Shown here: one piece after another, positions 7,158 through 55,257 of the stretch
Layout: each line of letters begins with the position of its first letter
Position numbering within the stretch: the first letter of the stretch is position 1
Source of the DNA: a virus
DNA: 64,000 nucleotides
Virus record (IMG/VR): IMGVR_UViG_3300037137_001341
Coordinates: 32,001 to 96,000 of that record
Strand: one strand, 5' to 3'
Made by a program: the position numbers and the translations under genes
The notes under the pieces: model-generated
Told to the model about the DNA's origin: nothing
What the model saw: the letters and a program-made list of their open reading frames with translations, nothing else
Databases searched by the model: none

Positions 7158-7199
7158 CCCGAACCACCCCGAACCGAACCACCGAAAGGATCACGCATC

Positions 7200-8396: not shown

Positions 8397-8404
8397 GAAT
8401 CTCC

Positions 8405-8484
8405 CCCGGCCACGGCGGCACCCAGCGGCCGTGGCCGGGCTACTCGGGTGACCGTGCCAACGGTACGATCTCCCGACTAGCCCG
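8405..8484 (+). other. Intergenic structured RNA (overlapping hairpins)
   Basis: CCCGGCCACGGC/GCCGTGGCCGGG 12-bp stem; GGGCTAcTCGGG/CCCGAcTAGCCC stem enclosing ACCGT/ACGGT. Confidence 0.5.
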
Positions 8485-8506
8485 CTGCAACCCAAACGGA
8501 GGACAC

Positions 8507-15469: not shown

Positions 15470-15900
15470 GGCAGCGCCCGAAGGTACTGCCGGAAGGCCC
15501 GGTTCGAGAGGGCCGGGATGCCCAAGGCGTCGCTGCGCCGGCTCCGCACGAGCATTAGCATGTCCGCACCGGGCTCCCCCGTGACCATGTGCAGCGCGAG
15601 CGCGGCGATGAACGCCGAGCGGTTCCGTCCCATCTGGCAGGTCACGAGGACCCTCCGTCCTCTGCGCATGTCCCTCGCGACGGCCTCCGCGGCTGTCCAG
15701 GCGGTCATCAGGTCGTCTGCCGTCGGCTCCGACGAGTCATCGAACGGGCAGTGCCGCACCCGCACGCCCGGGAAGGCCGCTGCCGGCGGCTGGTACTCCT
15801 CGGCCGCGAAGACGATGACGTCGAAGCGCCCCACGTAGTCCCCCGGCGGGGGCGCGGCGCCCACGTAGAGCCCTTCCACGATGCGGCTGGCGTCTGCCAC
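15466..15900 (-). CDS. Dual-specificity/tyrosine phosphatase
   Basis: LVTCQMGRNRS (CX5R), PFDD general-acid loop. Confidence 0.88.
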   Translation of the reverse strand: MADASRIVEGLYVGAAPPPGDYVGRFDVIVFAAEEYQPPAAAFPGVRVRHCPFDDSSEPTADDLMTAWTAAEAVARDMRRGRRVLVTCQMGRNRSAFIAALALHMVTGEPGADMLMLVRSRRSDALGIPALSNRAFRQYLRALP

Positions 15901-15961
15901 GGGCGGCAGAGTACCCGAAAGCCGCTGGGACCGAAATAGGCTGGTCTGTTATCGTAACGGG

Positions 15962-20236: not shown

Positions 20237-20667
20237 CGGTCGCCGATGACGGCGAACTGCGTCCCGAGATCCTCGAAGAACACATCCCCGGACTTCACGA
20301 GCAGGAAGTCCTTGCCGGTCCCAGGGAAGCCCCTGGGCGTGCGCCTGTAGATGGCCACGACGGTGCCCACGAACTCCCGGGATGTGCCGCCAGCTGGGTC
20401 CCCCGGCTCGGGGCCGCTCGGCGCGATCCGCAGGACGGTCTTGCCGGTGAACTTCTCGGTGATCGAGCCGGGGCCAGTGGGGGCGTTCTCGATGATGTCG
20501 AGGGTCGACGGAGCGGTGTCTGTCAGCGTGGTAGCTACGGCCGTGTCCCACAGAACCTTCGGGGTTGCACCATCGAGGGTGATGATGGCGAAGTGTGGCG
20601 GCTGCAGCTGGATCGCAGATGGCCCGGCCGGAGCGACGTGGAGAGCGACGATGTCACCGTTTGCCAT
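20233..20667 (-). CDS. Hypothetical beta-rich protein, paralog of 20671..21099
   Basis: GDIV..QLQPP..LDII..F.GK.V..F.G.VV. Confidence 0.7.
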   Translation of the reverse strand: MANGDIVALHVAPAGPSAIQLQPPHFAIITLDGATPKVLWDTAVATTLTDTAPSTLDIIENAPTGPGSITEKFTGKTVLRIAPSGPEPGDPAGGTSREFVGTVVAIYRRTPRGFPGTGKDFLLVKSGDVFFEDLGTQFAVIGDR

Positions 20668-33043: not shown

Positions 33044-34093
33044 TTACCTCTTCCTTCGTAGAACGAGTGCGATCCCGAGCAGCGCCACAGCGCCGAGCCC
33101 ATACATCGCCATGGTGCTCATCATCGGCGCGCTCGCGCCCCCGGTGTCCACCCGCGTGCCCTTCGTCTTGTCGGCCAGCGACAAGTACGGAGGCAGCACC
33201 GGGCCGCCGCCGCCAGCGAACCAGGCGTACAGGTTCGGCATCGACTTCTTCACGAAGTCCGGGCCCCCGCCCGCAGTGGTCGGAGCCGCCATGAGCCCGA
33301 CCATGATCCCGATCCCAGTGGCGTTCGGGTACGTCTGCGCTCCCGCGGACGCGCTCACGGTCTTGCCGCTCATCACCGGGGACGCGGATACGATGTACTG
33401 CCAGAGCACGCTCGCCGCCGGCTCCCAGATCCCGCTGGTGTAGAAGTCGGGCGTGTAGGTCGCCTGCGCCGTCGTACTGAGCGCGAAGCCGCCGCTCGAC
33501 AGCGCCATCAGCGACTTCACCTCGGCGAGCGTTGCCGCGTCACCGAGATCGAGCGTTATCCCGGTCACCGCAGCCGGCGCGCCTGCGCCGAGGCTTCCGT
33601 CATTGAACGCCCGCAGCGGGCCGAACGTGTTCATGCCCTCGTAGTGCGGCCCAAGGATCCCCTGGTTGTAGACCGAGATGGGCGTGCCACCGGCCTCGTC
33701 CGTATCTCCGAGCGAGCCATCGTTGTATGACCGCAGCGGTCCCGGCATCGAGGCGTCTGCCGGTGAGCCACCGACCACGCCGTCGGCGTACGCGAAGAGC
33801 GATCCAGCGGAGGCGTCACCGAGCCCGAGCGATCCGTCCGAGTACGCGAACAGCGGGCCAGGCATCGCGGACTCGTCCGGCGAGCCGCCGAACACGCCGT
33901 CCGAGTACGCCTGCAACGGCCCCTGCCCGAGCCCGAGCGATCCGTCCGAGTACGCGAACAACGGGCCAGGCATCTCGGCGCTTGCCGCCGAGCCCCCGAC
34001 GACACCGTCGGCATATGCCTGCAGCGGGCCCTGACCCAAGCCGCCGGCGCCCTGGGTGATCTTGGTGCTTCCGAAATATGCGCCTAGCGGCAT
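33044..34093 (-). CDS. Repeat-containing C-anchored membrane protein
   Basis: GPLxAYxDG repeats; TM + RRKR; GAGGAACACATG start. Confidence 0.78.
   Translation of the reverse strand: MPLGAYFGSTKITQGAGGLGQGPLQAYADGVVGGSAASAEMPGPLFAYSDGSLGLGQGPLQAYSDGVFGGSPDESAMPGPLFAYSDGSLGLGDASAGSLFAYADGVVGGSPADASMPGPLRSYNDGSLGDTDEAGGTPISVYNQGILGPHYEGMNTFGPLRAFNDGSLGAGAPAAVTGITLDLGDAATLAEVKSLMALSSGGFALSTTAQATYTPDFYTSGIWEPAASVLWQYIVSASPVMSGKTVSASAGAQTYPNATGIGIMVGLMAAPTTAGGGPDFVKKSMPNLYAWFAGGGGPVLPPYLSLADKTKGTRVDTGGASAPMMSTMAMYGLGAVALLGIALVLRRKR
33590..34035 (-). repeat. Intragenic tandem repeat, ~108-bp unit
   Basis: gagcccgagcgatccgtccgagtacgcgaaca at 33821 and 33929. Confidence 0.75.
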
Positions 34094-34122
34094 GTGTTCC
34101 TCGTTCCTGAGCCTACTCCGGG

Positions 34123-34350
34123 TCAGTCCCCTACGAAAGCCTCGATGCGGGGCCGCAGAAAGTACATGGCGATCCCGCCGGCTACGACGCCGACCCCGAG
34201 CCAGGCCCAGCCGGGCACACCGGCGCCGATCTCGTCCGCCCCGAGCCCAACGGCCCTCCCGAGGATCCCCATGGGGCCGCCCACGTTGTCCATCGTGGGC
34301 CCGAGCGCCTCGGCGCCAGCCGCAAGAGACCTCTTCTGCTGATCGGTCAT
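34123..34350 (-). CDS. Small C-anchored membrane protein
   Basis: VGLGADE; TM. Confidence 0.7.
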   Translation of the reverse strand: MTDQQKRSLAAGAEALGPTMDNVGGPMGILGRAVGLGADEIGAGVPGWAWLGVGVVAGGIAMYFLRPRIEAFVGD

Positions 34351-34571
34351 CGGGACCTCGGCCTCACCGGATCACGCAGCACGAAATACCCGAGCACGAT
34401 CGCCACCCCGAGGAGCCCGAGCGCCATCCGGTGCGCCAGCTGCACGGTCTCCGGCGACGGCTCCGTTGGAGCATCGCCCATCGCGCCCGAGCAGCCGCAG
34501 CCGCCCACGCCGACGAGCTTGCCGGACATGTCCCCGTAGGGAGGGACACCGGCGATGGCGACCAGATTCAT
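34347..34571 (-). CDS. Small C-anchored membrane protein
   Basis: GVGGCGCSGAMGDA; TM + basic tail. Confidence 0.68.
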   Translation of the reverse strand: MNLVAIAGVPPYGDMSGKLVGVGGCGCSGAMGDAPTEPSPETVQLAHRMALGLLGVAIVLGYFVLRDPVRPRSR

Positions 34572-34573
34572 GT

Positions 34574-35491
34574 TCACTTCTTGTACTTCCGGTACATGTA
34601 GTAGCCGCCGCCACCCACCGCGAGCAGCGCAAGGATCCCCCACATCGCCGACGTCGAGGACGCCTGCGTCGTTGGCTTGTGGAACATCGGGATGCAGTTG
34701 CTGCCGACCAGATGTGATCCGGGCGGGCAAGTCGTCGCTACTGTCAGCGCCACGCAGTTGCCGTTCGCGTCCCACACGTACCCTGGTGAGCAGTCGCCCG
34801 CGCAGACGCTCGTGCCGTCCGTGAAGTGGAACGGTGACCTGCCCGCTGGACACGTCACGCAGTTCCCGTTCGCGTCCCAGGCATGCTCCGGGTCACAGAT
34901 CCCCGCGCACTGCCCCTTGAAGAGCGCGTGCCCCGGAGGACACGACGTCACCGCGCACGGCGGCGCCGCCATCAGCTTCGCCCACCAAGCGGGATCGTGT
35001 TGGCCGAGCCAGCAGAGGACGTTCCAGTCCTTGTTGTCCCCACCTCCCGCGTTGCAGTAGTCCCGCAGCTTCGCGAACTCCGGCGTGATGCACGCAGCAG
35101 GAGCCGGGAGTCCGGCGCCGGGACAGAACGGGAGCTTCGAGAGCGCGATGGCGGTCCACTGCGCCGCCGTGTCATTCACGCAGTCGAAGTCCGGGTTCAG
35201 CACGCGGCCATTGGCGCAGTTGGCGATAACGCCGGCCGTGTACGTGTCGATGCACGTCGGCGTCGGGCAGATGTTCGAGTCGGCAACAGAACACGGCGGA
35301 AAGGCGGCCAGCCTCCCACTCATCTTGTACTCGACGCCGAGCCCGGTCAGCGTTCCGCTTCTCTGAGCCGCACAGAGCCCGACCGCCTCGTCATGCTCCG
35401 CCTGCGAGACACACGTCGGCTCCGAGAGGGAGCGGATCCCGCTGGGGGTCATCTCCAGGAGGCCGAGACCTGTCATCGATCGGTACGTCAT
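34574..35491 (-). CDS. Cys-rich C-anchored membrane protein
   Basis: MTGLG, LTGLG; CxxGxxWDANGNC modules; TM + RKYKK. Confidence 0.78.
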   Translation of the reverse strand: MTYRSMTGLGLLEMTPSGIRSLSEPTCVSQAEHDEAVGLCAAQRSGTLTGLGVEYKMSGRLAAFPPCSVADSNICPTPTCIDTYTAGVIANCANGRVLNPDFDCVNDTAAQWTAIALSKLPFCPGAGLPAPAACITPEFAKLRDYCNAGGGDNKDWNVLCWLGQHDPAWWAKLMAAPPCAVTSCPPGHALFKGQCAGICDPEHAWDANGNCVTCPAGRSPFHFTDGTSVCAGDCSPGYVWDANGNCVALTVATTCPPGSHLVGSNCIPMFHKPTTQASSTSAMWGILALLAVGGGGYYMYRKYKK

Positions 35492-35495
35492 CGGA

Positions 35496-36050
35496 TCACT
35501 TCTTCCTGAGCATCATGTACCCGAGGCCGAGCACAGCGACGGCACCGAGCCCGTACAGAGCCATGGTGGTCGTGCTCATGCCGGCCTGCGTGTCTCCGCC
35601 GCCGCCGGCGGAGCAGTGCGGAGTCTCCTGCGCCTTGTCCCAGTACGTCGGCGACTTGCTGGCGGCCCAGCAGAGCGAGTTCATCCCGGCCGTCGGCCCG
35701 TCGAAGAACGGGTACTTGTCGCAGTACGCGAGCCCCTGCAGATACGTTTCGTCGAGGCACGCCGGCATGCCACCGGCGAACGCCGTGTCGAAGCTCGGGC
35801 ACCCTGGAAGGGCGTCCACGCCGCACTGATTCAGGTGAGCGCAGAGCGCGCTCCACACGGCGGCGCTCACGCCGGGGGGAGCCGGCTCCTTGGCCTTACA
35901 TTCGGCGATGGCCGCGATCCAAGTCTGATCGAGGCACGTGTTCCCGCCCTCCGTGGGGATCCCCTGACCGCACGGCAGAGCGGTCGCGTACTGCATGGCC
36001 TGCTCAAGCGTGGGGGGCGGTTCGGCTCCTATGCTGCTGTTTCGGTACAT
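35496..36050 (-). CDS. Cys-rich C-anchored membrane protein
   Basis: SIGAE; YC..NSLCW domain shared with neighbours; TM + RKK. Confidence 0.78.
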   Translation of the reverse strand: MYRNSSIGAEPPPTLEQAMQYATALPCGQGIPTEGGNTCLDQTWIAAIAECKAKEPAPPGVSAAVWSALCAHLNQCGVDALPGCPSFDTAFAGGMPACLDETYLQGLAYCDKYPFFDGPTAGMNSLCWAASKSPTYWDKAQETPHCSAGGGGDTQAGMSTTTMALYGLGAVAVLGLGYMMLRKK

Positions 36051-36056
36051 GGCGCA

Positions 36057-37097
36057 TCACTTCTTTCTCATCACCATGTAGCCGACACCGAGTGCGACGA
36101 GCGCGCCGATCCCGAACATAGCCATGGTCGTGCTGCTCATTCCGGCTTGCTGCGTGCCGCCACCGCCACCGCCGGCGGACGGCGGGACACATGCGCCGGT
36201 GACCGGATCACGGGTGTACCCGTAGCCGTATACGGAGCAGTCGTCGGCCGGCAGGATGTGCTTGGTCGTGTCGGCCTGCAGCACGCAGGTACCGCTGGAG
36301 TCCCTGATGTAGCCGGTGTCGCACGGGGTCGGCAGCTTCACGTCTGCAACGCAGTCGCTTCCGACCAGATGGAAGCCCGCGCTGCACGTCTTGGGTGGTG
36401 GCGGCGTCGGCGCCGCTACAGGGATGCAGTTGCCGTTCGCGTCCCACACGTACCCTGGTGAGCAGTCGCCGACGCACTGGCCCTTGAACATCGAGTGCCC
36501 AGGAGGGCACGTCGTCGGGGCGGCGCCCGCAGTTGCCACGCAGTTGCCGTTCGCGTCCCAGACATATCCCGGTGAGCAGTCGCCGACGCACACGAACTTC
36601 TTCGACGGCAGCATGAACATCGAGTGCCCAGGAGCGGCAACCGGAACGTCCATGAACTGCTGGTACAGATCCGGGAAGCGATGCAGCGTCCAGCAAGCCG
36701 CGTCGAGACTAGGGTTCCGTGGGTAATTGACCGGAAACGTCTTGCAGTAGTTGATCTCGTTCCGAAAGACGGTCCCGACTTCCGACGTATCGGTGCATCC
36801 CGGAATCATGGCGATCCATGGCGCCGTGTCGATGTCCGAGCAGCCCAGCTTCTTGAACATGCCGCAGGTTCCGAGTGCAGCACGCGCATCCTGGAACTGC
36901 TGGTCGGTCAAGTTGGCCGGCTTCTGGCCGGTGTAGAACAGCGACAGGATCTGGATCATCTGCGCGCTGAGACACGGCGCGTTAGCCAAGTCCGCGGGGC
37001 AGCCGTTCACTGCGATCCCGTAGAGCAGGTACGCGACCTGATCCGGCGTCAGCGGGGCCTCGGCGGCCCCGAGTCCTCTCATCTCTCTGTACGTCAT
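36057..37097 (-). CDS. Cys-rich C-anchored membrane protein
   Basis: MTYREMRGLGA start; repeated CVGDCSPGYVWDANGNC; TM + RKK. Confidence 0.78.
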   Translation of the reverse strand: MTYREMRGLGAAEAPLTPDQVAYLLYGIAVNGCPADLANAPCLSAQMIQILSLFYTGQKPANLTDQQFQDARAALGTCGMFKKLGCSDIDTAPWIAMIPGCTDTSEVGTVFRNEINYCKTFPVNYPRNPSLDAACWTLHRFPDLYQQFMDVPVAAPGHSMFMLPSKKFVCVGDCSPGYVWDANGNCVATAGAAPTTCPPGHSMFKGQCVGDCSPGYVWDANGNCIPVAAPTPPPPKTCSAGFHLVGSDCVADVKLPTPCDTGYIRDSSGTCVLQADTTKHILPADDCSVYGYGYTRDPVTGACVPPSAGGGGGGTQQAGMSSTTMAMFGIGALVALGVGYMVMRKK

Positions 37098-37930
37098 CGC
37101 CGACGGTTCCTTGCCAGCTGCCGCGAGGCAGGCGTGTAGGAGCCGCCGATCCTGGGCGCCCGCTTCGACCAGAGCATGTACCCCAGCACCGCGGCTCCGA
37201 GGCCCACGGCGATGGGCAAGCTCAGGTTCGTCTTGGTGTCCACGGAAGGCGTCGTCGGGACGAGCTTGATCGGCGGCGCGGCAGGCGGCCCCGTCGGCAC
37301 CGTGACCGGCGTCGCGATCGTCATCTGCGCCGTCAGCGCATCCTGGAAGGACGAGGTCGCCGGGGTCGAGCGCGTCGTCGAGCCCTGCGACGGGATCTGC
37401 GCCGCGAAGACGAGTGCACCACCGACGGCGGCGGCTCTCGGCGCGATGGTGAGCGTGTGCTTCGGCAGCTGGGACATGTCGATGCGCTCGCCCCAGTGGA
37501 GGAACGCAATCGTCGGGACGGGCTTCGCGTCGTCCTGCCGGTAGACGGCCTGCGTCTCGTACGCCTTGTACGCCGTCCCCTTCCACATTGCGTCGATCGA
37601 CGCCTGCGTCATCGGGCCCTTCGTGATGATCGCTACGAAGGGCAGCGGGGAGCCGTAGGACAGCTGCATGGCCGCAGCGATCTGGTCGTCGTTCAGGCCC
37701 CAGAGCACGATGTTCGTGTCCGGGTTCGTGATCTCCTCCCAGGTCGTGTCGCTCGTGCGCGACGCCCACGGCGTGTACGTGCCGAGCACCTGGAGGTCCA
37801 GCGCCGTGGTGAGTTCCGAGAAGATGCTCTGCGCCGGCATGTCCCCGAGGGACGTGCCCGGGGGCGCCGGGATCATGCGCAGCGAGTCCCAGGCCGCGCC
37901 CGAGCCGCCATGCTCCATGTAGGAGGACAT
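37094..37930 (-). CDS. C-anchored membrane protein
   Basis: SLGD; TM; ends LARNRRR. Confidence 0.7.
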   Translation of the reverse strand: MSSYMEHGGSGAAWDSLRMIPAPPGTSLGDMPAQSIFSELTTALDLQVLGTYTPWASRTSDTTWEEITNPDTNIVLWGLNDDQIAAAMQLSYGSPLPFVAIITKGPMTQASIDAMWKGTAYKAYETQAVYRQDDAKPVPTIAFLHWGERIDMSQLPKHTLTIAPRAAAVGGALVFAAQIPSQGSTTRSTPATSSFQDALTAQMTIATPVTVPTGPPAAPPIKLVPTTPSVDTKTNLSLPIAVGLGAAVLGYMLWSKRAPRIGGSYTPASRQLARNRRR

Positions 37931-38084
37931 CACCACGGGAGCCTCACTCGCTCGCCCGCAGAAGCCAGCCGGCCGCCGTTTCCCGAGCACGACTCGGCTG
38001 CCAGCATGTCCGACGCTGGAGCGGTTGCCGATGCCCGCCGAAAGAGCGACGTCGGCCGACTGGCCTCTACGGGTGAACGAAAAG

Positions 38085-38372
38085 TCACGGCTTGTACCTC
38101 GAAGGGTTGAGCCGCACGGCGGTATCCCATGCTCCGTCCCTGGAGATCAGGGCAGTCTCCGCCGCCTCCACATCTCCGGCGTCCTCCAGGTAAACGCGCA
38201 TGTCCTCGAAGACACCAGACACGATCTCGAAGAGCTTTGATGGATCTCCGTGCAGGAGGTCCAGCGCCTCCATGACTCGCTCGTGCGCCATGTCCGACTT
38301 CGTCGGTGGACCACGACGGCTTTTCTTGCCGTGAATCCCAGCCGCCGGAAGCATCTTCATGTTCCTTTTCAT
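38085..38372 (-). CDS. Small hypothetical protein
   Basis: GGAGG RBS, ATGA coupling; starts MKRN. Confidence 0.55.
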   Translation of the reverse strand: MKRNMKMLPAAGIHGKKSRRGPPTKSDMAHERVMEALDLLHGDPSKLFEIVSGVFEDMRVYLEDAGDVEAAETALISRDGAWDTAVRLNPSRYKP

Positions 38373-39277
38373 CGTGGCCCTCCACCGAGCGACCCTGGAC
38401 CACCGCTCGCGTTCGTCAGGGGCTTCATGCACTCCATCAAGGAGTCGAGGTGAAGCTCCGGGATCAGCATCCCCGCGATGTCGTACTCGATGAACGCGAT
38501 CGGCGACGGGATGGGCTGGAAGATCACGCACCGGACCTGCACGGTCTGGTTCGACCTCGCGTAAAGCGTGAACGGCACCGACAAGGGACCGTACCGCGTC
38601 GGCCGCTGCGGCAAGAGCGACGTACCGACGCCGGCCGCGCTCGCGAAGCTCGACGCCCCGGCGATGTTGAACGTGGACCCCTGCGCCGCTCCGACCGCTG
38701 CCGCGAGCGCGGGCGGAAGCTCACCCCCTCCGATCGCTGGCGTCGTGAAGGCCTGCGTGAACGTCTGGATGGGCACGGGGTCCAGCTGGTACAGCAGGTT
38801 CCCCGGCTGGTGCTGGTCCACGCTGATCTGGAAGCCCATGATCGAGGAGAAGCGCCGGGCTTCGACAGGCACGGTGTCGCCAGCGTCCACACCCGAGAAC
38901 CGGTAGATGTCCGGGCGGAGATCGAACAGGAGGAGCGCGAACGTGCTCGGCACCTTGAAGGCACCAAGCTCGAACGTGAACGGCGTCTCCGGGCTGACGT
39001 CGTCGAGGAACATGCCCTCCTCGGGCAGCCGCCGGTACAGCTGCTCGAACGGCACCACCGACGGGTGCACCATCAGGGAGCCCAGGAAGCCACCCGCAAG
39101 CTGCACCCGATCCGCGTTGCACCCGAGGGATGTGCCCTCGCCAGGGTACGGCGCCGGGGGCGGAGCATCGCCCAGCCCCGGTCGCAGGTACTGCGCGGGG
39201 CGCGCGGGCGGCTGGACCGAAGGAAGGCCCAGCCCCGCGATCTGCCTTGCTGAAAGGTGCAGAGGGGGCTGGTTCAT
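38369..39277 (-). CDS. Beta-rich protein, candidate jelly-roll minor capsid/penton
   Basis: Alternating hydrophobic strands; N-terminal IAGLG/PGLGD; terminal strand EYDIAG. Confidence 0.5.
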   Translation of the reverse strand: MNQPPLHLSARQIAGLGLPSVQPPARPAQYLRPGLGDAPPPAPYPGEGTSLGCNADRVQLAGGFLGSLMVHPSVVPFEQLYRRLPEEGMFLDDVSPETPFTFELGAFKVPSTFALLLFDLRPDIYRFSGVDAGDTVPVEARRFSSIMGFQISVDQHQPGNLLYQLDPVPIQTFTQAFTTPAIGGGELPPALAAAVGAAQGSTFNIAGASSFASAAGVGTSLLPQRPTRYGPLSVPFTLYARSNQTVQVRCVIFQPIPSPIAFIEYDIAGMLIPELHLDSLMECMKPLTNASGGPGSLGGGPR

Positions 39278-39290
39278 GCGTGCCTCCGCT

Positions 39291-40274
39291 TCAGGTCAGA
39301 CGGACCGGACCAGGCGGCTGGATGATCTTGAACCCGTGCAGCCCGATGAAGAGGAGGCCATCGGGCAGGCGCGTGATCGGATCGACCGTCGCCGTCTGGT
39401 TCAGCGGATCCACGACGCCCTCATGGACGTCGTACTGGCTGCCCAGGAACGGGTAGAGCCCGCCGGCCGCGAAGCCGGAGGCGTTGCCCGCGGGCGGGTT
39501 GTTCACGTGCGTCGGCTGCACCTTCCACTGGACCGTCTCGCCACGCTCGAAGAAGTCGAGCGCGCCCAGCTGGAAGGGGCTGTTGATGCTGTCCGAGTAG
39601 AACGCCGAGGGCACCGGGTCGTTCGACCGCGGGTAGCCGGCGCCCTGGTTCAGCATCGTGATGACCGCGTCGAACTCCATCGAGCGGAAGGACGAGTGGT
39701 TCGAGGGGCTCGCGTAGATCGGCGCGCCCGTGCCCGGCGCCGCGATGCCGGTGATCGGCTGGTAGCCCGCCGCGCCGTCGTTCAAGTCCCAGGCCGAGTG
39801 GATCGGCCGGAAGCGACCGAACGAACGTCCCTGGAACGCCGCCTGCGCCTGCGACACAGGATCGCGGGCCGCGAACTGGAAGGCCGACTGGAAGGCCGCG
39901 AACCGCGCAACGGCCACGAACGGGCCGTCCTGCGAGATCGTCTTCGTGCCCTGCTGCTCCGAGATCGTGTTCGACCCGATGGGGATCGTCACGAGGAGGT
40001 CGAACGGAACCCGCCGGCCCGGGATCGACTCGATGTACCGGACGTGATCGTTCACGTTGCCGTTACCGAAGCCGTTCCCGTTGCTCTTGCCCTCGACGCC
40101 CTGCAAGGCGTTCGCGAGGTTCTGCAAGTCGCGCGTGTTGCGCTCCAGCGCCTGACGAAGCAGCGCGGTGTCGCCCTGGTTCGCCTTCGCCATGTCCGCG
40201 GCCTGGCGCGCCTGGCCCGCCGCGTACCCAGCCTGCTGCTGCAGCTGAGCGAGGATCTGATTGAGGTCTGCCAC
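39291..40274 (-). CDS. Candidate jelly-roll capsid protein with N-terminal coiled coil
   Basis: GGAGG RBS before GTG; ISQDGPFV, SNDPVP, PFQL, terminal FIGLHG strand. Confidence 0.55.
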   Translation of the reverse strand: MADLNQILAQLQQQAGYAAGQARQAADMAKANQGDTALLRQALERNTRDLQNLANALQGVEGKSNGNGFGNGNVNDHVRYIESIPGRRVPFDLLVTIPIGSNTISEQQGTKTISQDGPFVAVARFAAFQSAFQFAARDPVSQAQAAFQGRSFGRFRPIHSAWDLNDGAAGYQPITGIAAPGTGAPIYASPSNHSSFRSMEFDAVITMLNQGAGYPRSNDPVPSAFYSDSINSPFQLGALDFFERGETVQWKVQPTHVNNPPAGNASGFAAGGLYPFLGSQYDVHEGVVDPLNQTATVDPITRLPDGLLFIGLHGFKIIQPPGPVRLT

Positions 40275-40449
40275 TGTCTTGTGCCTCCGGTTAGGAGTAC
40301 CGGACGGGAACCCAGGGTACATGCCCCAAGCGTCCCAGTCCGTGCCATCGGTCAGATTCAGGCCCGGCCCCAGGTCGCCCCAGGGCCGGTCCGCGCTCAC
40401 TGAGACGTCCAGTGACTCACAGGCAAGTGCCCGGAATCACTGGGCTTTC

Positions 40450-41229
40450 TCACTGAACGTCGCGCGCGAAGAGACCGTCGAAGGTGAATTGGATCACCTT
40501 GTTGATGCCGTCCACGGCGTTCAGGTTGCTCTGGAGGGACAGGTAGTTCCGTCCCTGGGGACCGTTGGTCATCCCCGCGAGCACGCCGTTGCCGCCGTCC
40601 GGCAGCGGCAGGATCTGCGCCGTGCAAAGCACGTTCTGCCGTGGTGGCAGGAGAATCGCGCGGGCGAGGCGCAAAATCGCAGTGTGGTCCGGCGTCCCGT
40701 TGTTGAAGTGGATCAGATCCGAGGATCCGCCGAGGTCGCCCCAGAGGCCGCCGCCGTCCGGGAAGTACTTCGTGGCCATGTTCGAGATCGAGTTCTTCTC
40801 GCCCGTCCCATAGCTCCAGTGCAACTGCTCTTCGGCTTGCCAGTAAAGCCGATAGACGTCTTCGATCGAGCCCGGGTACTGCCCCGCGCCGGGCCCACCG
40901 GGGTTCGCGAAGAAGTTCGCCGCGCCGTCCTGGGAGAAGTCGCCGTTCTGCTTGATGTTGCCGTTCGCAGGACCGGTCGCCCGGATCTGCGGGTTGCGGA
41001 ACCACGTGAACACGCGCAGGGCGAGCGTCACGTGCGACTGGTCGGACGGCAGGGTCGAACCGTTCTGGAGGTTCGTCAGCGCGTTCGGGTCGTCGATGCG
41101 CTGCTGGTTCGAGAACAGCTTCTGCGTCGCGTTGACGGGGTTGATGTTGCCACCGAGCCCGCTGGTGCGGATCAGGGTGTCGTAGAAGGGCTGGTGCACA
41201 CGCTCGCGGACGTTCGTCAGCTTTGCCAT
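40450..41229 (-). CDS. Candidate major capsid protein (single jelly-roll type)
   Basis: AGGAGA RBS, flanking structured spacers; QPFYDT..LF..TNL..G.LP..; terminal FTFDG strand; no TM. Confidence 0.6.
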   Translation of the reverse strand: MAKLTNVRERVHQPFYDTLIRTSGLGGNINPVNATQKLFSNQQRIDDPNALTNLQNGSTLPSDQSHVTLALRVFTWFRNPQIRATGPANGNIKQNGDFSQDGAANFFANPGGPGAGQYPGSIEDVYRLYWQAEEQLHWSYGTGEKNSISNMATKYFPDGGGLWGDLGGSSDLIHFNNGTPDHTAILRLARAILLPPRQNVLCTAQILPLPDGGNGVLAGMTNGPQGRNYLSLQSNLNAVDGINKVIQFTFDGLFARDVQ

Positions 41230-41319
41230 GGAAATCTCCTTGAGAGATGGGTGGGTGACCCCGGGACCGTTTTGTAAGGGTGTCGTCCCTTGTTTCCCGA
41301 AGTCGGTTCTAACGCCCCG

Positions 41320-41366
41320 CGCCCCGGGGTCTGCTGCGTGGGATGCACGCAGCGCCTACCGGGGCG
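41320..41366 (-). other. Stem-loop upstream of candidate MCP gene
   Basis: GCTGCGTG/CACGCAGC inner stem; CGCCCCGG/CCGGGGCG outer stem. Confidence 0.55.
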
Positions 41367-41384
41367 AGAGGAGAGAGGAAGTGA

Positions 41385-43898
41385 TCAGCCGCCGCTGAGC
41401 ACCCCGTTCCCACCAGGACCCTGGAGGATCCCCGCGGGAAGCTCGGACTCCGTGTAGTGCGCGTCCGCAGAGGTCGTCCCGGCCCAGAGAGGACCGTTCG
41501 GGATCCACTGCGACTGCGTCGGCACGGTGCTCTCCGCGAACCCGCCGTTGCTCGGCGAGGCCGTGAAGAACTCACCGAGCCCCGCAGCAGCCTGCCCAGC
41601 GACCGCCTGCGTCGCGCCCTGACCCAGTCCAGCAGCCGACTCGGCGAGATCCAGGATCTGATCCAGGTTCGCGTCGGGACGGATGCCGTCGTCGATGGGA
41701 AGCTGCCCCATGTGCGAACGACCGGGCATGAGGGCGAGCGGGCCGGCCTTCTCGTAGAATCCCACTCCCTGGGTGCCGGGACCAGCGAAGTACTCGCCCA
41801 CGCCCGAGGCGGGCTTGAAGTACTCGCCCACGCCGGCGTGCGCCTGCGTGAACTGCGGTGCCTGCCCGATCGATGCGTACTGGGGCATGATCGAGTGAGC
41901 GTTCTTTGCGATGCCGAGGCCTCGCAGGTGACGCGGCTGGTAGCGACCCGAACCGCGCAGCGCGGATGCCCGGCTGTTCGAGTAGCCGTCGAGGTACGAG
42001 AGCACCTGCGGCTGGTTGGCCGCAGTGAGTGCCGTCCGAACGAAGGACTCCAGGAAGGAGACCATCATACCGGCCGACACCGCCATCCTGGTCTCGACCT
42101 TGACGGCCTTGACCATGGACATGCCCGCGATGCCCACGCCACCGATGACGAGGCCCGTGATGGGCTTCTGCCAGGTCGCGATGATCGACTGCTTGCCGTT
42201 GGAATCGACGACCGCCATGCCCGCGAACGTGGTGCCGTCAGCCGACGTCAGCGCCTTCACTGCCGCGCCCGTGAGGGCTCGGTGCGCGAAGAAGCCGATG
42301 AGGATGAGGCCGCCCGTCTTGAGCAGCGCCGTCATGTCCCCGGCGAACCCGTTCTTGAGGTACCGGTTCGCGTGAAGCCGACGACCGAGCCCGTGACGGC
42401 GATGACGCCTGCTGTGGCGCCGACGCCGGCTGTTCTCCTCGTAGTGCCTGTTCCGCACGAGGTACAGGCCGCGCTTCAGACGGCGGACCTTCCGACGACC
42501 GATGCGACGCGGCACTCCACGCACGCGACGGGACTTGCTCTTGCGCTTCGCGACCTTGCGCTTGCCGCGCTTCTTGCCGCCCTTGCCCTTGGCCTTGCGC
42601 GTACGCCACGCCTTCCGCGCAGCGGCTGCACGCTTGGTGCTCTTGCGCTTCCCCTTGCGCTTCGCGACCTTGCGCTTGCCGCGCTTCTTGCCGCCCTTGC
42701 CCTTGGCCTTGCGTGTACGCCACGCCTTCCGCGCAGCGGCTGCACGCTTGGTGCTCTTGCGCTTCCCGCTCTTGCGGGACTTCGCCTTCTTCTTCTTCTT
42801 TCTCGCCTTGGCCATTCTCTTCGCTCCCGCGTTGGGTGTGAACGCATCCATGCCTCGCTCGACACGAGCGGCAGCAGCCTTGCGGCGCTTCGCGATCCGA
42901 TCGCGCGCCTTCTTGTACGCCTCGACGTTCTTGTAGTCCTTGGCGCTGATCGCCCCCGCGATTGCCCACTCGGGGATCTTGCGGAGCCGCTTGCCCTTGC
43001 GGGTCATGTAGCTCAGCCCCCGCGCGCCCCGGCGCGGGTTGTAGAGGCTCGCCCGACGGAACGGACCGTAGGCCACGCGCGCCCGGTGCCCGCTCTTGGA
43101 GGTCTTCGACTGCTTCGGCCACTTGGACTTCACGGCCTTGCGGTGCCGCTTCGCCACGTTCGCCGGCAGCATCCGCTTCGCCTCGCGGATCTTCTCTTTC
43201 TCGGCCCGGATCTTCAGCCGCTCGATGGCCTTGTTCTCGCGCTGCACCGCCTTCTCGGCCTGCGTCTTCGCGCGCTCCATCGCCTTCCCCGCCGCCTTGA
43301 TCCGCTTCTCGGCCGCCTTGATCCGCTTCTCGGCCGCCTTCACGGTCTTCGACGCGCGCTTGCGCTTGGCCGGAGTCGACGTGGCCGCCGCACCGCGACG
43401 CCCCGACGCCTCCTGCCAGTGCTGCCACGGAGTCTTGCGTGGAGAAGATGAGGAGGAAGCAGCAGCGCGACCCTTCCCGAAGGTGGCCTCGTGAGAGGCC
43501 TCGTAGGCCTCCCGCTGCGCCTTGGTCTGCCGCTTGGACAGATTGCGCCGGAGCCCGCGCTTCCGCGTGCGACCGCCACCTGCTGCGCGACGGTTTTCCT
43601 GCATGCGCCGCACGAAGGCGGCGCGGTGAACTCCGTTCGATGACATTGCCATGCTTCCGCTCCTGTTGGCCATGAGGCGCCGAGCGCGAGCAACGCGCTC
43701 GGCGCGGGACAGACCGTGGACTGCGCTGCGAGCGGAGTGGGCACGCGCATAGGCCCCGGGGCCATTCACCGCCGAGAGCGTCGTGACGCCCATGGGGTTC
43801 GGCCGGTAGCTGCCGGCGTTCGGCCGCGCCATGCGGTACGCGCCCACATCCGCCTTGCGGATGGGGAACGCGCGACCGATTGCTTTGCGACTTGCCAC
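41385..43898 (-). CDS. 837-aa tripartite protein: histone-H1/protamine-like basic region, TM region, G-h-G repeat tail
   Basis: K/R-rich N-terminal ~515 aa; hydrophobic helices; GVGEYF/GLGEFF repeats. Confidence 0.8.
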   Translation of the reverse strand: MASRKAIGRAFPIRKADVGAYRMARPNAGSYRPNPMGVTTLSAVNGPGAYARAHSARSAVHGLSRAERVARARRLMANRSGSMAMSSNGVHRAAFVRRMQENRRAAGGGRTRKRGLRRNLSKRQTKAQREAYEASHEATFGKGRAAASSSSSPRKTPWQHWQEASGRRGAAATSTPAKRKRASKTVKAAEKRIKAAEKRIKAAGKAMERAKTQAEKAVQRENKAIERLKIRAEKEKIREAKRMLPANVAKRHRKAVKSKWPKQSKTSKSGHRARVAYGPFRRASLYNPRRGARGLSYMTRKGKRLRKIPEWAIAGAISAKDYKNVEAYKKARDRIAKRRKAAAARVERGMDAFTPNAGAKRMAKARKKKKKAKSRKSGKRKSTKRAAAARKAWRTRKAKGKGGKKRGKRKVAKRKGKRKSTKRAAAARKAWRTRKAKGKGGKKRGKRKVAKRKSKSRRVRGVPRRIGRRKVRRLKRGLYLVRNRHYEENSRRRRHSRRHRRHGLGRRLHANRYLKNGFAGDMTALLKTGGLILIGFFAHRALTGAAVKALTSADGTTFAGMAVVDSNGKQSIIATWQKPITGLVIGGVGIAGMSMVKAVKVETRMAVSAGMMVSFLESFVRTALTAANQPQVLSYLDGYSNSRASALRGSGRYQPRHLRGLGIAKNAHSIMPQYASIGQAPQFTQAHAGVGEYFKPASGVGEYFAGPGTQGVGFYEKAGPLALMPGRSHMGQLPIDDGIRPDANLDQILDLAESAAGLGQGATQAVAGQAAAGLGEFFTASPSNGGFAESTVPTQSQWIPNGPLWAGTTSADAHYTESELPAGILQGPGGNGVLSGG
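42540..42767 (-). repeat. Near-perfect 114-bp tandem duplication (38 aa)
   Basis: GKRKSTKRAAAARKAWRTRKAKGKGGKKRGKRKVAKRK twice. Confidence 0.9.
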
Positions 43899-46392: not shown

Positions 46393-46754
46393 CTCCGCCG
46401 CCTCGTAAGCACGAACGCCGCCAGGAACGCGGCGCCCCCCGCGATGGCCACCTGGAGCCCGAGCCCTGGCCGCGCCGTCAGTGCGCCACGGGCCCGAGCC
46501 TGGAAGCATGTGACCTCGTCCCACGACGGCTTGATCTCCGGGTCACATGTATCCATCCAGTGCCGGATGTCCTCCTGCGTGTACCCGCGGCGCTCGTACG
46601 GGGCCATGAGCGCGAAGGGGATCTGCCACTCCGGGACCTTCGCCGGGTCGACGCCTGCCTCGTGCAGCAAGATCCCGAGGTACTGATACTCGCGCTTCGC
46701 CCGCACCTCCGGCGCGTCGCGGTAGATCGGCGTGTCCATCGTCATGGTCGCCAT
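46389..46754 (-). CDS. C-anchored membrane protein
   Basis: PGLGL; TM + RRRR. Confidence 0.7.
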   Translation of the reverse strand: MATMTMDTPIYRDAPEVRAKREYQYLGILLHEAGVDPAKVPEWQIPFALMAPYERRGYTQEDIRHWMDTCDPEIKPSWDEVTCFQARARGALTARPGLGLQVAIAGGAAFLAAFVLTRRRR

Positions 46755-47800
46755 CAGCGTCTCCCTCGGAAGAAGTACACGCCGAGCGCAACGGCGGCCA
46801 GTGCGCCAACGGCAACGAGCACCTTCGCGCGGTTGTCCTGCGCTCGCTGGTCCGCCTCACCGAGCGCGAGGTTCATGCGCTGGCGGAAGCAGTCGGGGTC
46901 TCCGTTGCAGCCGATGACCCAATCGAGTGCCTCTACCGGCTCGACGCCACGGCTCTTCAGAGCGGCGAGCACGGTGAGGTCCGCGGCGTTCTGCGGGACG
47001 TTTAGCGCGAGATCGAGCCAGGCACGCTCCTGCACCATCGATCCGATATACGCAGCAAGCTCGTTAAGCTCCTGCGTGCGTTCCATGTCATCGAGGCTCT
47101 CTCCAGCGGCGACTTGCTGTCGCGCTGCAGCGGCAATCTGCGCGTGTGTCGGAGGCGGAACCGGAGCCGCGGCCGACGCCGGAGGAGGAGACAGCACCGT
47201 GCCGGGAGGAGGCTCGGCGGCAGAGACGAACTGGATCTTGTTCGCACTGTCCGTCGTCATCTTGCAGACGGCGATCGGCTGACACGGCACAGAGTCGCCG
47301 CCGAAGTTAAACCGCAGTTCGCGCTCACACCAGCCGGTCGGCGTTCCGTACGCGCGCAGCGTCGTGCTCACCGCGCTCCACGCCTCGAAGGCGTCCTGGA
47401 AGTTCTGCGCGCAGGGCGCCGGATCCTTCCTGTTGTGGAGCTTGTCCTGGACCCTTGCCGCCAAGTCGTACGCGAGCGCGCTGGCCTGCTTGTAGTCCTT
47501 GCCCGGCTTGACCCTCTGCTCCGCGATGACCGTGTTCGCTACGATGTGAGCCGCCGTGATCGCGTAGTTCAGCGGCCACACCGCGGCGACCAGCGGATCG
47601 GCAGGGATCACCACAGATGCGCCCTGGTCACCGGCATATGCCAGAATCGTATGGACGTCTCCCCCACCGCTGAGCATCGCCTGCGCAGTCTCGACGGCGA
47701 CGCGATGTAGCTCCGCAAGCCCGGGGCCACCCCAGAGGTAGTCGTACGGTTCCGGCACCACCTGCGGGACCGGCAGTTCACCGAAGCCCCCGTAGCTCAC
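46754..47800 (-). CDS. C-anchored membrane protein
   Basis: Starts xSYGGFGE; TM + RGRR. Confidence 0.7.
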   Translation of the reverse strand: MSYGGFGELPVPQVVPEPYDYLWGGPGLAELHRVAVETAQAMLSGGGDVHTILAYAGDQGASVVIPADPLVAAVWPLNYAITAAHIVANTVIAEQRVKPGKDYKQASALAYDLAARVQDKLHNRKDPAPCAQNFQDAFEAWSAVSTTLRAYGTPTGWCERELRFNFGGDSVPCQPIAVCKMTTDSANKIQFVSAAEPPPGTVLSPPPASAAAPVPPPTHAQIAAAARQQVAAGESLDDMERTQELNELAAYIGSMVQERAWLDLALNVPQNAADLTVLAALKSRGVEPVEALDWVIGCNGDPDCFRQRMNLALGEADQRAQDNRAKVLVAVGALAAVALGVYFFRGRR

Positions 47801-48036
47801 GACTGCCTCCAGATCATGTACCCCGACGCAACCAGGAGCCCGAGGCCGATGAACCCGACAGTCGACAGACGTACCTGCGACGTCTCCTGCTCTGAGAGCG
47901 TCTTGCTGATCTGCAACAGCTGCTTTTGCTCCAGCGTCAGCGGCTTGCAGTCGCCGTTCTCGTCCCAGGCGTAGCCGGGGCTGCATATGCCGACGCACTG
48001 GCCCTTGAAGAGCGCATGACCAGAAGCGCAGGTCAT
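47797..48036 (-). CDS. Mini Cys-module C-anchored protein
   Basis: CASGHALFKGQCVGICSPGYAWDENGDC; TM. Confidence 0.72.
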   Translation of the reverse strand: MTCASGHALFKGQCVGICSPGYAWDENGDCKPLTLEQKQLLQISKTLSEQETSQVRLSTVGFIGLGLLVASGYMIWRQS

Positions 48037-52391: not shown

Positions 52392-52790
52392 TCACCTCTT
52401 CTTGGAAGCGCGGTAGATGAGGGCTCCACCGACAGCGACGGCCGCGATGGCCCCGCCGTAGAGCATCCAGTTCGTGCCGCCGGTGCCGCCGAACATGCCT
52501 GCGCTGGTGCCAGGTTTCTTCGTCCCCGTGTCGCCGTACACGACCACCTCGGGAAGCGTGATCACGCCGATGCTGTTGCCCGAGAGGCTCCCGTTGCCGA
52601 CCCCGTTCATGCCGTCCGGGCTGAGCCCCACCTGCTTCGGCAGAATGGCGCGGAGCCTCGCGTTCAGGAACGAGATGTCCCTGTACTGGTGCTGCCCAGC
52701 GTACCCGAGCCCTGCCATCGGAGGACGAGCCTGCTGCCACTCCGCGTTCAGCAGAGCGTAATCCTCGTAGGCGATTGTTCCGTAGGCCAT
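52392..52790 (-). CDS. C-anchored membrane protein
   Basis: MAGLGY, MNGVGN; TM + KKR. Confidence 0.7.
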   Translation of the reverse strand: MAYGTIAYEDYALLNAEWQQARPPMAGLGYAGQHQYRDISFLNARLRAILPKQVGLSPDGMNGVGNGSLSGNSIGVITLPEVVVYGDTGTKKPGTSAGMFGGTGGTNWMLYGGAIAAVAVGGALIYRASKKR

Positions 52791-52794
52791 CGGC

Positions 52795-53553
52795 TCACTT
52801 CCTCTTCTTCGACATGTACAGGCCGGCACCGACCGCGGCGACGACGAAACCACCGAGCATCCAGGCCGTGGCGCTGGAGGACTTGCCCGTCGTCGGCCCG
52901 ACGTGCGGAGCATCGGCGATCTTCGCCGGGAGCACCATGTTCGGGCAATCCAGATCGAAGCGGATGCTTGTACATCCAGCCGGCAGCGAGGGGAGCACCG
53001 GATGGAAGCTGATGCCAAGCTCATGGAGCTTGAACATCGCTCCGCAGGTCGCGCTGTCGTACACACCGGTCTGCGGGATCGCGTTGTAGCCGGCGGCGGT
53101 CAGCGCAGTGCTCAGCGCATCCTGCAGATCATCCGCGATATTGCTCTTCTGGTTCAACGCGAGGAAGCACGGATCGGCCGCCGGCCCGGCTGGGGGCGAG
53201 GTCCCACCACTAGAGGGCGCGACCGGCGCGGCGGTCGAGTCCGACGGGGCCTGAGAAGGAGCAGGCGCAGCCGCGACCCACGACGCCGGCAACTTCACGA
53301 CGTCCCCGACCTTCGCGCAGAACCCGTACTGCGTGCACTTGTGCGCCGGGTTCGCCGTGGCAAGTTCGGTCCACCGGTTGCCGTTGCCCGTGATCGCCTT
53401 CGCGACGGACGTGCCGGTGTCCCCGCTCCTCCAGGTGTACGTCGGCGCCGATGACAGACCGAGCCCCCCGAAGCCCATGTTCGAGCCGTCGAACAGGCCG
53501 CCGCCGTAGCCGCCGCCACCGAAGATGCCTTCTCGCGTGTGAACCTGGATCAT
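52795..53553 (-). CDS. LysM plus PG-binding-like C-anchored protein
   Basis: YTWRSGDT..VAK..WTELATANP..VGDVVKLP; LQDAL..TGVYDSAT; TM + KKRK. Confidence 0.75.
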   Translation of the reverse strand: MIQVHTREGIFGGGGYGGGLFDGSNMGFGGLGLSSAPTYTWRSGDTGTSVAKAITGNGNRWTELATANPAHKCTQYGFCAKVGDVVKLPASWVAAAPAPSQAPSDSTAAPVAPSSGGTSPPAGPAADPCFLALNQKSNIADDLQDALSTALTAAGYNAIPQTGVYDSATCGAMFKLHELGISFHPVLPSLPAGCTSIRFDLDCPNMVLPAKIADAPHVGPTTGKSSSATAWMLGGFVVAAVGAGLYMSKKRK

Positions 53554-53555
53554 TG

Positions 53556-53831
53556 CTATCTCCTGACGAGACAAAAACCGCCGATGACGCCGATTGCACC
53601 GAGGAGCCATGGCGTCCACGGCGCGTAGGTCTCCGCAGTCGCCGCCGCCTGACCGAGTCCGTTGGCAGGGACGAAGCCGCGCCTGAGCATCCCCGGCTGG
53701 AGCCCCATCGTGCGCGGCGGGATCATGCCCAGGCCCTGCGTCGACCAGTTCGACGGAACGTGGATGACGTCACGGAAGATGGCCGCGCCCTCTTCGCGCT
53801 CCTGCAGACCCTTTCCATCTCGACGGTACAT
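53556..53831 (-). CDS. Small C-anchored protein
   Basis: QGLGM, NGLGQ; TM + RR. Confidence 0.68.
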   Translation of the reverse strand: MYRRDGKGLQEREEGAAIFRDVIHVPSNWSTQGLGMIPPRTMGLQPGMLRRGFVPANGLGQAAATAETYAPWTPWLLGAIGVIGGFCLVRR

Positions 53832-53834
53832 GAC

Positions 53835-54155
53835 CTAGTAGCTGCCTTTGTAGCCGGAGAAGTGGAGGTACGCATACGTCGCAAGCCCCAGGGCCGCGAT
53901 GAACAGCACCGTCTTCCCGACGGACGGGCCAGCCGTGTCGTCCCCAAGCCCTTGCATCCCCGCTTCGAGCCCGAAGTCGTTCGGTCGCTCCGCCCACGGG
54001 AGCCCGAACTGCGGGCGCGTGTAGATCGGCCCGTGGAACCGCGTCGGGTACGAGTGCAGCATCACGGTGTACGGGTTCGGCACGCCAGGGGGCACCGGAC
54101 CGTCGTACGTGTTCAGCGACTGGCCTAAACCAGCCATGCAGGGAACGCACGCCAT
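53835..54155 (-). CDS. Small C-anchored protein
   Basis: MAGLGQ, MQGLGD; TM. Confidence 0.72.
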   Translation of the reverse strand: MACVPCMAGLGQSLNTYDGPVPPGVPNPYTVMLHSYPTRFHGPIYTRPQFGLPWAERPNDFGLEAGMQGLGDDTAGPSVGKTVLFIAALGLATYAYLHFSGYKGSY

Positions 54156-54158
54156 CGT

Positions 54159-54554
54159 TCAGCCCTTCCTCTTGTTCGCGACGATGCCCATGACGCCGAG
54201 ACCGAGCACCCCGGTGAAGAGCCCGACCGGCACACCGATCCAGCCCCACGTGGTCGCATCCTGCCGAGACGGCGCAATCGCCTTGCCCGCCTGGTAGCTC
54301 AGCGCGCCTGCGACGCCGAGGATCGCCAGCATCCAGGCCATGTCCGCGCTCGTCATCTTCGTGTCCACCGGGACGCCAGTCCCTGTGTCAGCCGGGGCAT
54401 CCCCGAGCCCACGTATCGCAGCCACCACGGGGCTCAGCGCGAAGAACCGTGACTTGCCGACCGCGCCGGTGCCGGCGGCTGCCTGCGTCATGGCGCCGGC
54501 AGGGACGTCCTGCGAGAAGACGTCGAACGTGGGCAAAATGCTTTGGCTGTCCAT
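54159..54554 (-). CDS. Membrane protein
   Basis: IRGLGD; TM hairpin + KRK. Confidence 0.72.
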   Translation of the reverse strand: MDSQSILPTFDVFSQDVPAGAMTQAAAGTGAVGKSRFFALSPVVAAIRGLGDAPADTGTGVPVDTKMTSADMAWMLAILGVAGALSYQAGKAIAPSRQDATTWGWIGVPVGLFTGVLGLGVMGIVANKRKG

Positions 54555-54561
54555 GTGCTCC

Positions 54562-55257
54562 TCACTTCTTCATCAGGGTCGCGGCCACGATGCCGACCGC
54601 GACGCCGACGATGGCGAATCCCGCGAAGATGCCGAACTTGGAGCCGGAATCCGTCGCCGGAGCATCGGCACCGAGCCCGTTCACTGGCCACGCCTCCTCG
54701 TTCGGGATCCAGGTCCCGCCGGGATCGGGATGCGTGACGTTCTGCGGACTCACGCCGGGAGGAAGCTCCCAGAGCAGCTGCCTCTCGCGCACGGTGTCCA
54801 GCTGGCTCTGATCGATCGCGACCGCGCCGCCGGGCACGTACATGACGGGCTGGCCAGTGGTCGCGTCGATCACCTCCGACGGCTGGTAGTCGATCGAGTT
54901 CACCAAGTAACCCGGCATCGAAGCGTGGTCCGCGAACACGCCGTAATCCGGGTGGATGTTCCCCTGCGTGCCGTGCGGATCGAACACGCCATTGCCTTGT
55001 ACATCGTCCGCTGCTGCGAGCGTGTTTAGCTCGTTCGCGTAATCCTTGATTCCGATGTCTGCGGTCATGCCGTTGTCTCCCAGGCCCGCGATGTTGCGCC
55101 CACGCGCGCCGCGGTACATGTCGTACGAAGGGTTCATGCCGCTCGGACGCATGTCCGGCGGCCCGATCTCGTCGATGCTCGGAAGGTCGCCGCCGAACAT
55201 CGGCTGGCTCGCGTACACCGGGTACGGGGGACGCAGGGCTCGAAGGACGTTGCTCAT
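54562..55257 (-). CDS. C-anchored membrane protein
   Basis: IAGLGD, VNGLGA; TM + KK. Confidence 0.75.
   Translation of the reverse strand: MSNVLRALRPPYPVYASQPMFGGDLPSIDEIGPPDMRPSGMNPSYDMYRGARGRNIAGLGDNGMTADIGIKDYANELNTLAAADDVQGNGVFDPHGTQGNIHPDYGVFADHASMPGYLVNSIDYQPSEVIDATTGQPVMYVPGGAVAIDQSQLDTVRERQLLWELPPGVSPQNVTHPDPGGTWIPNEEAWPVNGLGADAPATDSGSKFGIFAGFAIVGVAVGIVAATLMKK

Follow-up and report, generated by a model that had tools for sequence, protein, structure and literature searches.

Three consecutive minus-strand genes, here called gA, gB and gC, lie in a 64,000-nucleotide stretch of viral DNA (the window, bases 32001-96000 of the 116,237-bp IMG/VR record IMGVR_UViG_3300037137_001341). We think it probable that gA and gB, and probably gC with them, form the outer shell of a large, tailless, membrane-containing bacterial virus. 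This is the best reading of the three genes because of their conservation, their position beside a basic protein and membrane-anchored proteins, and the missing hallmark genes. The products of gA and gB are each predicted by structural modeling to be single jelly-roll proteins, with one barrel apiece. That two of the three best-conserved genes encode predicted jelly-rolls, and that no tailed-phage head or packaging gene was detected, suggests an undescribed group of large tailless phages; none of the literature found by full-text search describes such a clade.

The record lacks terminal repeats, and its estimated CheckV completeness is ~85%. GC content at third codon positions (GC3) is 0.86-0.91 in the three genes, compared with ~0.5 at second positions, which in a genome of 67% GC indicates that all three are real. 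An earlier note, made from the window's sequence, had described them as three consecutive soluble proteins of 259-327 residues, the first with a strong ribosome-binding site. The open reading frames (ORFs) were confirmed, and no 19-residue segment in them reaches the hydrophobicity of a membrane segment; net charges are near neutral, and neither signal peptides nor membrane segments were found in the trio. The ribosome-binding site was confirmed as well, as AGGAGA 6 nt before the ATG of gA, and the other two genes have GGAGG, 5 nt upstream of the ATG in gC. For gB, the 369-residue ORF is the stop-to-stop maximum rather than the gene; we placed the start at the GTG at 40271, since homologues have 320-330 residues and GGAGG lies 9 nt upstream of this codon. 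Searches of Pfam and PHROGs gave no match for the trio or its neighbors, and PHROGs gave nothing for ten distant relatives of gA either. No tblastn match to the three genes was found in 50,697 GenBank phage records, and the hits of profile searches of PDB sequences were all noise: antibody light chains and, for the gB helix, coiled coils. Comparison of the three families with hhalign found no mutual similarity (probability <1%), so they are not recent paralogues.

AlphaFold2 models of gA and gB were built from alignments of 77-80 rows. The gA model (predicted local distance difference test, pLDDT, 76.8; predicted template modeling score, pTM, 0.77) has eight main strands (residues 15-22, 35-38, 66-78, 136-142, 145-152, 190-193, 199-206 and 243-256) and an inserted helical loop. 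The gB model (pLDDT 71.0, pTM 0.61) starts with one helix (residues 3-58), which a Gly/Asn linker of low confidence connects to a beta domain at residues 86-317; the 58-residue N-terminal helix is probably a coiled coil. For both models, capsid proteins of icosahedral viruses that contain a membrane are frequent among the best structural matches. The match lists contain SPV1, SH1, HHIV-2, HCIV-1 and P23-77 VP16, together with halves of the double jelly-rolls of PBCV-1, iridovirus and D13, and SPV1 capsid chains stand at or near the top for both models and are the best capsid match for each. The beta domain of gB scores 6.7 against the iridovirus major capsid protein and 6.7 against SPV1 chain 6oj0_A (root-mean-square deviation 3.8, 148 of 178 residues aligned), followed by PHM (6.5), PBCV-1 (6.4), SH1 (6.0), D13 (5.7), HCIV-1 and HHIV-2 (both 5.5) and P23-77 VP16 (4.5). 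Among the matches of gA are also PRD1 P5 and TNF-like proteins. Complex prediction with the gB beta domain, gC and gA as partner gave a score of 0.00 in two runs, which speaks neither for nor against binding.

gC has a Pro/Gly-rich N-terminus of ~55 residues and a variable loop rich in Ala and Gly, and its core looks mostly beta. A crude propensity profile of the Chou-Fasman type, with a three-state accuracy (Q3) of ~0.64 when benchmarked on the gA and gB models, assigns it ~25% strand and 10% helix. Its look-alikes in the ESM Atlas belong to unnamed clusters that are 85-93% viral. The earlier note had proposed that all three proteins are beta-patterned jelly-roll candidates, each ending in a similar strand. 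For two of the three, gA and gB, the models are indeed jelly-roll sandwiches, and the outcome that the note had named as refuting, models without an eight-stranded jelly-roll, did not occur for these two. Residues 3-58 of gB are helical, however, and the beta pattern of gC comes from the crude profile. The terminal motifs are all present around an invariant glycine, FTFDG and FIGLHG within the last predicted strands of gA (243-256) and gB (305-317) and YDIAG 30 residues before the C-terminus of gC. However, as the families have no detectable similarity, the 'similar strand' amounts to a loose hydrophobic-x-hydrophobic-x-Gly pattern and not to a demonstrated shared element.

Homologues of the trio form 677 (gA), 706 (gB) and 188 (gC) metagenomic clusters at 90% identity, and an exhaustive profile search with gA yielded 120 representatives at 50% identity. 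The N-terminus of gA (MPK..GV+E+.HQP, highly conserved) and its extreme C-terminus (DG...RDVQ) are retained throughout the family. We found gA on 20 further IMG/VR contigs of 38-182 kb. Several of the gA-bearing relatives, of 111-179 kb, carry direct terminal repeats and have a completeness rating of 100%, and a 123-bp terminal repeat was confirmed on a relative of 136,226 bp; two more distant full-length relatives of gA lie on contigs of 161 and 171 kb. Some homologues of gA have only ~200 residues and no counterpart of residues 81-125. These short forms are carried by virus contigs of 55-104 kb, most with terminal repeats, and in a sister lineage (L032-L035 and L037; 55-104 kb) a 200-residue gA stands beside a shortened gB of 208-259 residues. 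Relatives also turned up in species-representative genome bins labeled Pseudomonadota, Pirellulales (twice), Pseudomonadales and Methanomicrobiales, and such discordant labels are typical of mis-binned virus contigs.

Across the clade, whose viral genomes span ~55-180 kb, the three genes stay adjacent. All three occur in 16 of 16 full-length loci, and every related locus that is long enough reads basic protein, gA, gB, gC and then a membrane protein, with gC adjoining gB wherever the locus could hold it. Adjacency of gA and gB is kept even in distant short-form lineages, in two of which gC is detectable by profile searches. In three loci (L018, L029 and L038), 1.5-3.5 kb of extra DNA separates gA from gB, so that gB starts at 12344, 14301 and 13534, respectively, versus ~10900 elsewhere; the trio therefore tolerates inserted genes. 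Ranked by bits per residue among 25 genes of the module, gA, gB and gC are first, second and third (1.18, 1.00 and 0.83, with median identities of 70%, 53% and 52%), except that g51102, found in 7 loci only, edges gC (0.88 vs. 0.83). Within a virus clade, the genes for capsid proteins are normally the best conserved of the structural genes, whereas host-recognition proteins are usually the most variable. The top ranks of the trio are thus typical of capsid proteins and would be unusual for receptor-binding proteins.

This ranking bears directly on the explanation that comes next after a shell, which we consider unlikely: that the jelly-rolls are vertex spikes or receptor-binding heads, trimeric and TNF/C1q-like or PRD1 P5-like, with the gB coiled coil as their stalk and another, unrecognized gene encoding the real major capsid protein. 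Trimeric spikes such as PRD1 P5 share the layout of gB, a coiled-coil stalk, a flexible linker and a jelly-roll head, and the TNF-like and P5-like matches of gA fit the same plan. However, gA and gB are the most conserved proteins of the module across the clade, they directly follow the gene for the basic core protein in every relative, and all three genes have strong Shine-Dalgarno sites. Nor did Pfam and PHROGs reveal a better capsid candidate among the larger ORFs and most of the structural block, which were the ORFs tested in the record.

The neighbors of the trio are consistent with a shell built on a membrane. Directly upstream of gA, all relatives (16 of 16 full-length loci, 24-66% identity) encode an 837-residue basic protein. 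It matches no Pfam or PHROG family above threshold, and by its sequence it is a candidate DNA-condensing, membrane-linked core protein. The six genes downstream of gC are partially conserved in relatives. At least 11 proteins (33044-37990, 46754-47998 and 52392-55257, minus strand) have one C-terminal hydrophobic helix followed by a short basic tail, such as RKYKK, LRKK, MRKK, LRRKR, SKKRK, NKRKG, LMKK or FRGRR, and three of these tail-anchored proteins contain repeated Cys-rich modules (CSPGYVWDANGNC). A set of this size is unusually large for one virus. Together with the 197 Lys and Arg residues of the 837-residue protein, it gives a gene content that fits a protein-rich internal membrane around a condensed DNA core.

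The genes of the record that can be assigned have replication and auxiliary functions: a primase-helicase, ThyX, YqaJ, MoxR with a vWA protein, glycosyltransferases, a metallophosphatase, a 1451-residue tyrosine recombinase, and a nucleotidyltransferase with a tRNA-ligase-like domain. Neither an HK97 capsid protein nor a large terminase was found among the ORFs tested in the record, and ten large proteins tested matched no PHROG structural family. In near-complete relatives, HK97 Phage_capsid, TerL_ATPase and Terminase_6N gave no match at E 0.1, while the controls were recovered (PF05065 and PF03237 were run on 14 relatives, PF03354 on 8). A search with PF09018, the PRD1 P3 family, was uninformative, as its control was not recovered. 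The packaging ATPase profiles PF04665 and PF01580 (A32 and FtsK) had no match in the record, and in 8-14 near-complete relatives they gave only P-loop matches of 23-26 residues below the cut-off. Two of these matches were inspected; both are located next to or within a DnaB-type helicase gene and resemble replication proteins. Walker-A ORFs of the complete relative G001 include a ComM/Mg-chelatase-like protein, a DnaC-like protein that neighbors a DnaB-type helicase, and others without a family; in G001 and two other relatives, those that could be assigned are replication or maintenance proteins (DnaB-type helicase, DnaC-like, ComM-like). One Walker-A ORF of the record is the primase-helicase, and the others have no family assignment. 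Taken over the capsid, terminase, A32 and FtsK profiles, the searches without a hallmark gene covered the record and 6-14 near-complete relatives.

These searches also bear on a second alternative, to which we give somewhat less credence than to spikes: that this is a tailed phage that has diverged very far, or a virus of another known morphotype, and that the trio is accessory (decoration or cement, baseplate or fiber). A sufficiently divergent terminase, portal or capsid protein would escape Pfam profiles. Nevertheless, none of the three profiles for tailed-phage capsid and terminase found a match in as many as 14 near-complete relatives, PHROG structural families are missing from the large proteins tested, and tail-anchored membrane proteins dominate the module, unlike the head and tail modules of tailed phages. 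A non-virion role, as a secreted or cell-surface beta-sandwich during infection or as a compartment or matrix protein like TasA, is very improbable, as the trio lacks signal peptides and membrane segments, occurs only on virus-like contigs, and in all relatives lies at a fixed place, with the core-protein gene on one side and the membrane-protein genes on the other.

Several points, in addition to the spike-like layout of gB, weigh against a shell role. A Foldseek search of PDB and BFVD with the gA model returned nothing below E 0.01. None of the structural matches is clearly separated from unrelated jelly-rolls, so that the fold by itself does not prove a capsid role, and the jelly-roll models cover gA and gB, while the beta character of gC derives from the crude profile. 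The absence of terminase, portal and HK97 capsid proteins depends on Pfam profiles that are blind to very divergent versions. The genome also encodes large proteins without explanation (850 and 880 residues), and the record is incomplete.

We then asked whether the putative shell belongs to a described virus group. The closest design looks to be that of Portogloboviridae, with two single jelly-rolls, a membrane, a basic core protein and no recognizable packaging ATPase (PMC8459092). In SPV1 of this family, the outer shell consists of the single jelly-rolls VP4, in hexameric capsomers, and VP10, in pentamers (PDB 6oj0; PMC8459092). The likeness of the gA and gB models, two single jelly-rolls, is at the level of the fold, the matched chains being VP4 or VP10, and there is no sequence similarity between the trio and the SPV1 capsid proteins. 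In other respects the viruses differ, and membership fails on genome size and on the lack of sequence similarity. Portogloboviridae have ~20-kb genomes made of circular double-stranded DNA, whereas the record has 116,237 bp and its relatives with terminal repeats 111-179 kb. gA and gB are 80-150 residues larger than their SPV1 counterparts, gB has its long N-terminal helix, and there is a third conserved partner, gC. The virus also has replication genes of its own (primase-helicase, ThyX, YqaJ), which SPV1 lacks. Portogloboviridae infect hyperthermophilic archaea (Saccharolobus), while the virus described here is probably bacterial: its Shine-Dalgarno sites, a relative with a ComM-like gene and with a DnaC-like AAA protein beside a DnaB-type helicase, and genome bins that are mostly bacterial suggest that the hosts are bacteria.

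The earlier note had instead placed the trio in the frame of Halopanivirales, for which we compared Sphaerolipoviridae (SH1, HCIV-1 and HHIV-2), Simuloviridae and the Thermus phage P23-77 with VP16/VP17 (PMC12643093, PMC12642351). Halopanivirales encode two vertical single jelly-roll major capsid proteins side by side, which the adjacent gA and gB may parallel, but membership does not hold. Sequence similarity to the trio is lacking, the structural scores are below those of SPV1, and Halopanivirales genomes have 16-31 kb, while those found here are 4-10 times larger, that of the record being 116 kb or more. A packaging ATPase of the FtsK/HerA superfamily is a conserved structural gene of Halopanivirales (PMC12643093; PMC8328091), and searches of the record and of 8-14 near-complete relatives turned up none. 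Bamfordvirae (PRD1 P3, PBCV-1 Vp54, iridovirus major capsid protein, vaccinia D13) have two barrels per capsid protein, in contrast to one in gA and gB, and their A32-type ATPase was likewise not found in the record or the relatives searched. The HK97-fold capsid and large terminase of Caudoviricetes are also lacking, as far as Pfam profiles, which could miss very divergent versions, can tell. The description that fits best is of a putative shell that works as the SPV1-type or Halopanivirales-type shells do but belongs to neither group.

In such a virion, gA, the most conserved and compact of the three, would make up the bulk of the capsomers. gB would be a second shell or vertex protein, whose long helix might oligomerize, reach the membrane or core, or scaffold assembly, and gC a further shell, penton or cementing component. 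The shell would lie on a lipid vesicle studded with the tail-anchored proteins that are encoded on both sides of the trio. As no packaging ATPase is recognizable, the DNA would be condensed by the 837-residue basic protein and not pumped in by a motor.

It is possible, although we lean against a claim this broad, that the trio is the signature of a high-rank group of bacterial viruses, widespread but undescribed, which would have genomes of ~55-180 kb, very large icosahedral single jelly-roll shells, a protein-rich membrane, a protein-condensed DNA core and no packaging motor. If so, the 20-kb archaeal Portogloboviridae would have a giant-sized counterpart among bacterial viruses. To our knowledge, all cultured bacterial viruses with genomes above ~50 kb are tailed; large, tailless, membrane-containing phages would then exist and be widespread, and tailed phages would not be the sole large bacterial viruses. 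The single jelly-roll capsids that we know of enclose 16-31 kb, and their lattices would scale to genomes an order of magnitude above any known. Motor-free, nucleoprotein-type genome packing is known from one archaeal family and would also operate in bacteria, with genomes six to nine times as large. Genomes of the trio clade are common in metagenomes, and the alignments of gA, gB and gC (A1-A3) are usable markers for these viruses and their hosts.

The first gene of the trio had also been described in the earlier note as having long structured flanks; around the trio, only the upstream flank is structured. The 155-nt leader between the basic-protein gene and gA (Table 1) has a minimum free energy of -67.4 kcal/mol (z = -4.72), with none of 200 shuffles as stable, but the 378-nt gap downstream of gC is no more structured than shuffles (z = -0.97). 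Directly 3' of the stop codon of the 837-residue protein gene, the leader forms a long GC-rich hairpin (41300-41384, minus strand) with no U-tract after it. In 9-10 of 10 relatives the outer stem is conserved; the inner stems still pair despite different sequence, and a conserved box, GGGACGACACCC, follows the hairpin. Located between core-protein and capsid genes, the hairpin and box could be a terminator, an attenuator or an RNA-stability element. A second, small hairpin pairs the Shine-Dalgarno site of gA (TCTCNC-AA-GGAGA; window positions 41233-41262, minus strand). The palindrome is TCTCTC-AA-GGAGA in the window and TCTCC-AAA-GGAGA in L001, L011, L012 and L015, while in L010 and L013 it is TTTCC-AAA-GGAAA, a compensatory variant. 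In more distant relatives, TCCT often stands 3-4 nt ahead of AGGA. From this pairing, a hairpin that occludes the ribosome-binding site may tune translation of gA. The gap after gC holds a 68-codon acidic ORF (MAHERVMEALDLL..., 38085-38288, minus strand), which had no tblastn match in 25 related loci and is thus either lineage-specific or not a gene.

Table 1. Features of the window around the trio, in window coordinates.
Feature	Position	Strand	Description
Second small-gene cluster	52392..55257	-	products end in membrane anchors and basic tails
837-residue basic protein	41385..43898	-	197 Lys+Arg; hydrophobic segment 583-601; Gly-rich tail
155-nt leader	41230..41384	-	between basic-protein gene and gA
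gA	40450..41229	-	259 residues; predicted single jelly-roll; candidate main shell protein
gB	39291..40271	-	327 residues; GTG start; candidate second shell or vertex protein
gC	38369..39277	-	302 residues; third conserved gene of the trio
Six genes downstream of gC	33044..37990	-	mostly C-terminal membrane anchor and short basic tail; three Cys-rich

Several other large genes were characterized in passing. The 880-residue protein (56371-59013, minus strand) has a long, charged, coiled-coil-like middle, a Gln/Pro-rich stretch and no family, and might serve a large shell as scaffold or ruler; the ESM Atlas returned nothing for the 850-residue protein. In the 1451-residue protein (15881-20236, plus strand), the tyrosine-recombinase catalytic domain occupies the first ~560 residues, and ~900 more have no family; a recombinase of this kind suggests that the virus may integrate. 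A MoxR-type AAA ATPase, of the bpMoxR family of MoxR-vWA-beta-propeller systems, is followed by a vWA-domain protein at 7158-9673 (plus strand). At genome positions 17444-20597 (L006 and L007), a PcfJ-like protein fused to pentapeptide repeats precedes a 604-residue protein that combines a poly(A)-polymerase/CCA-adding head domain with a tRNA-ligase phosphodiesterase-like domain; judging by these domains, the pair may be an RNA-repair or tRNA-maintenance module.

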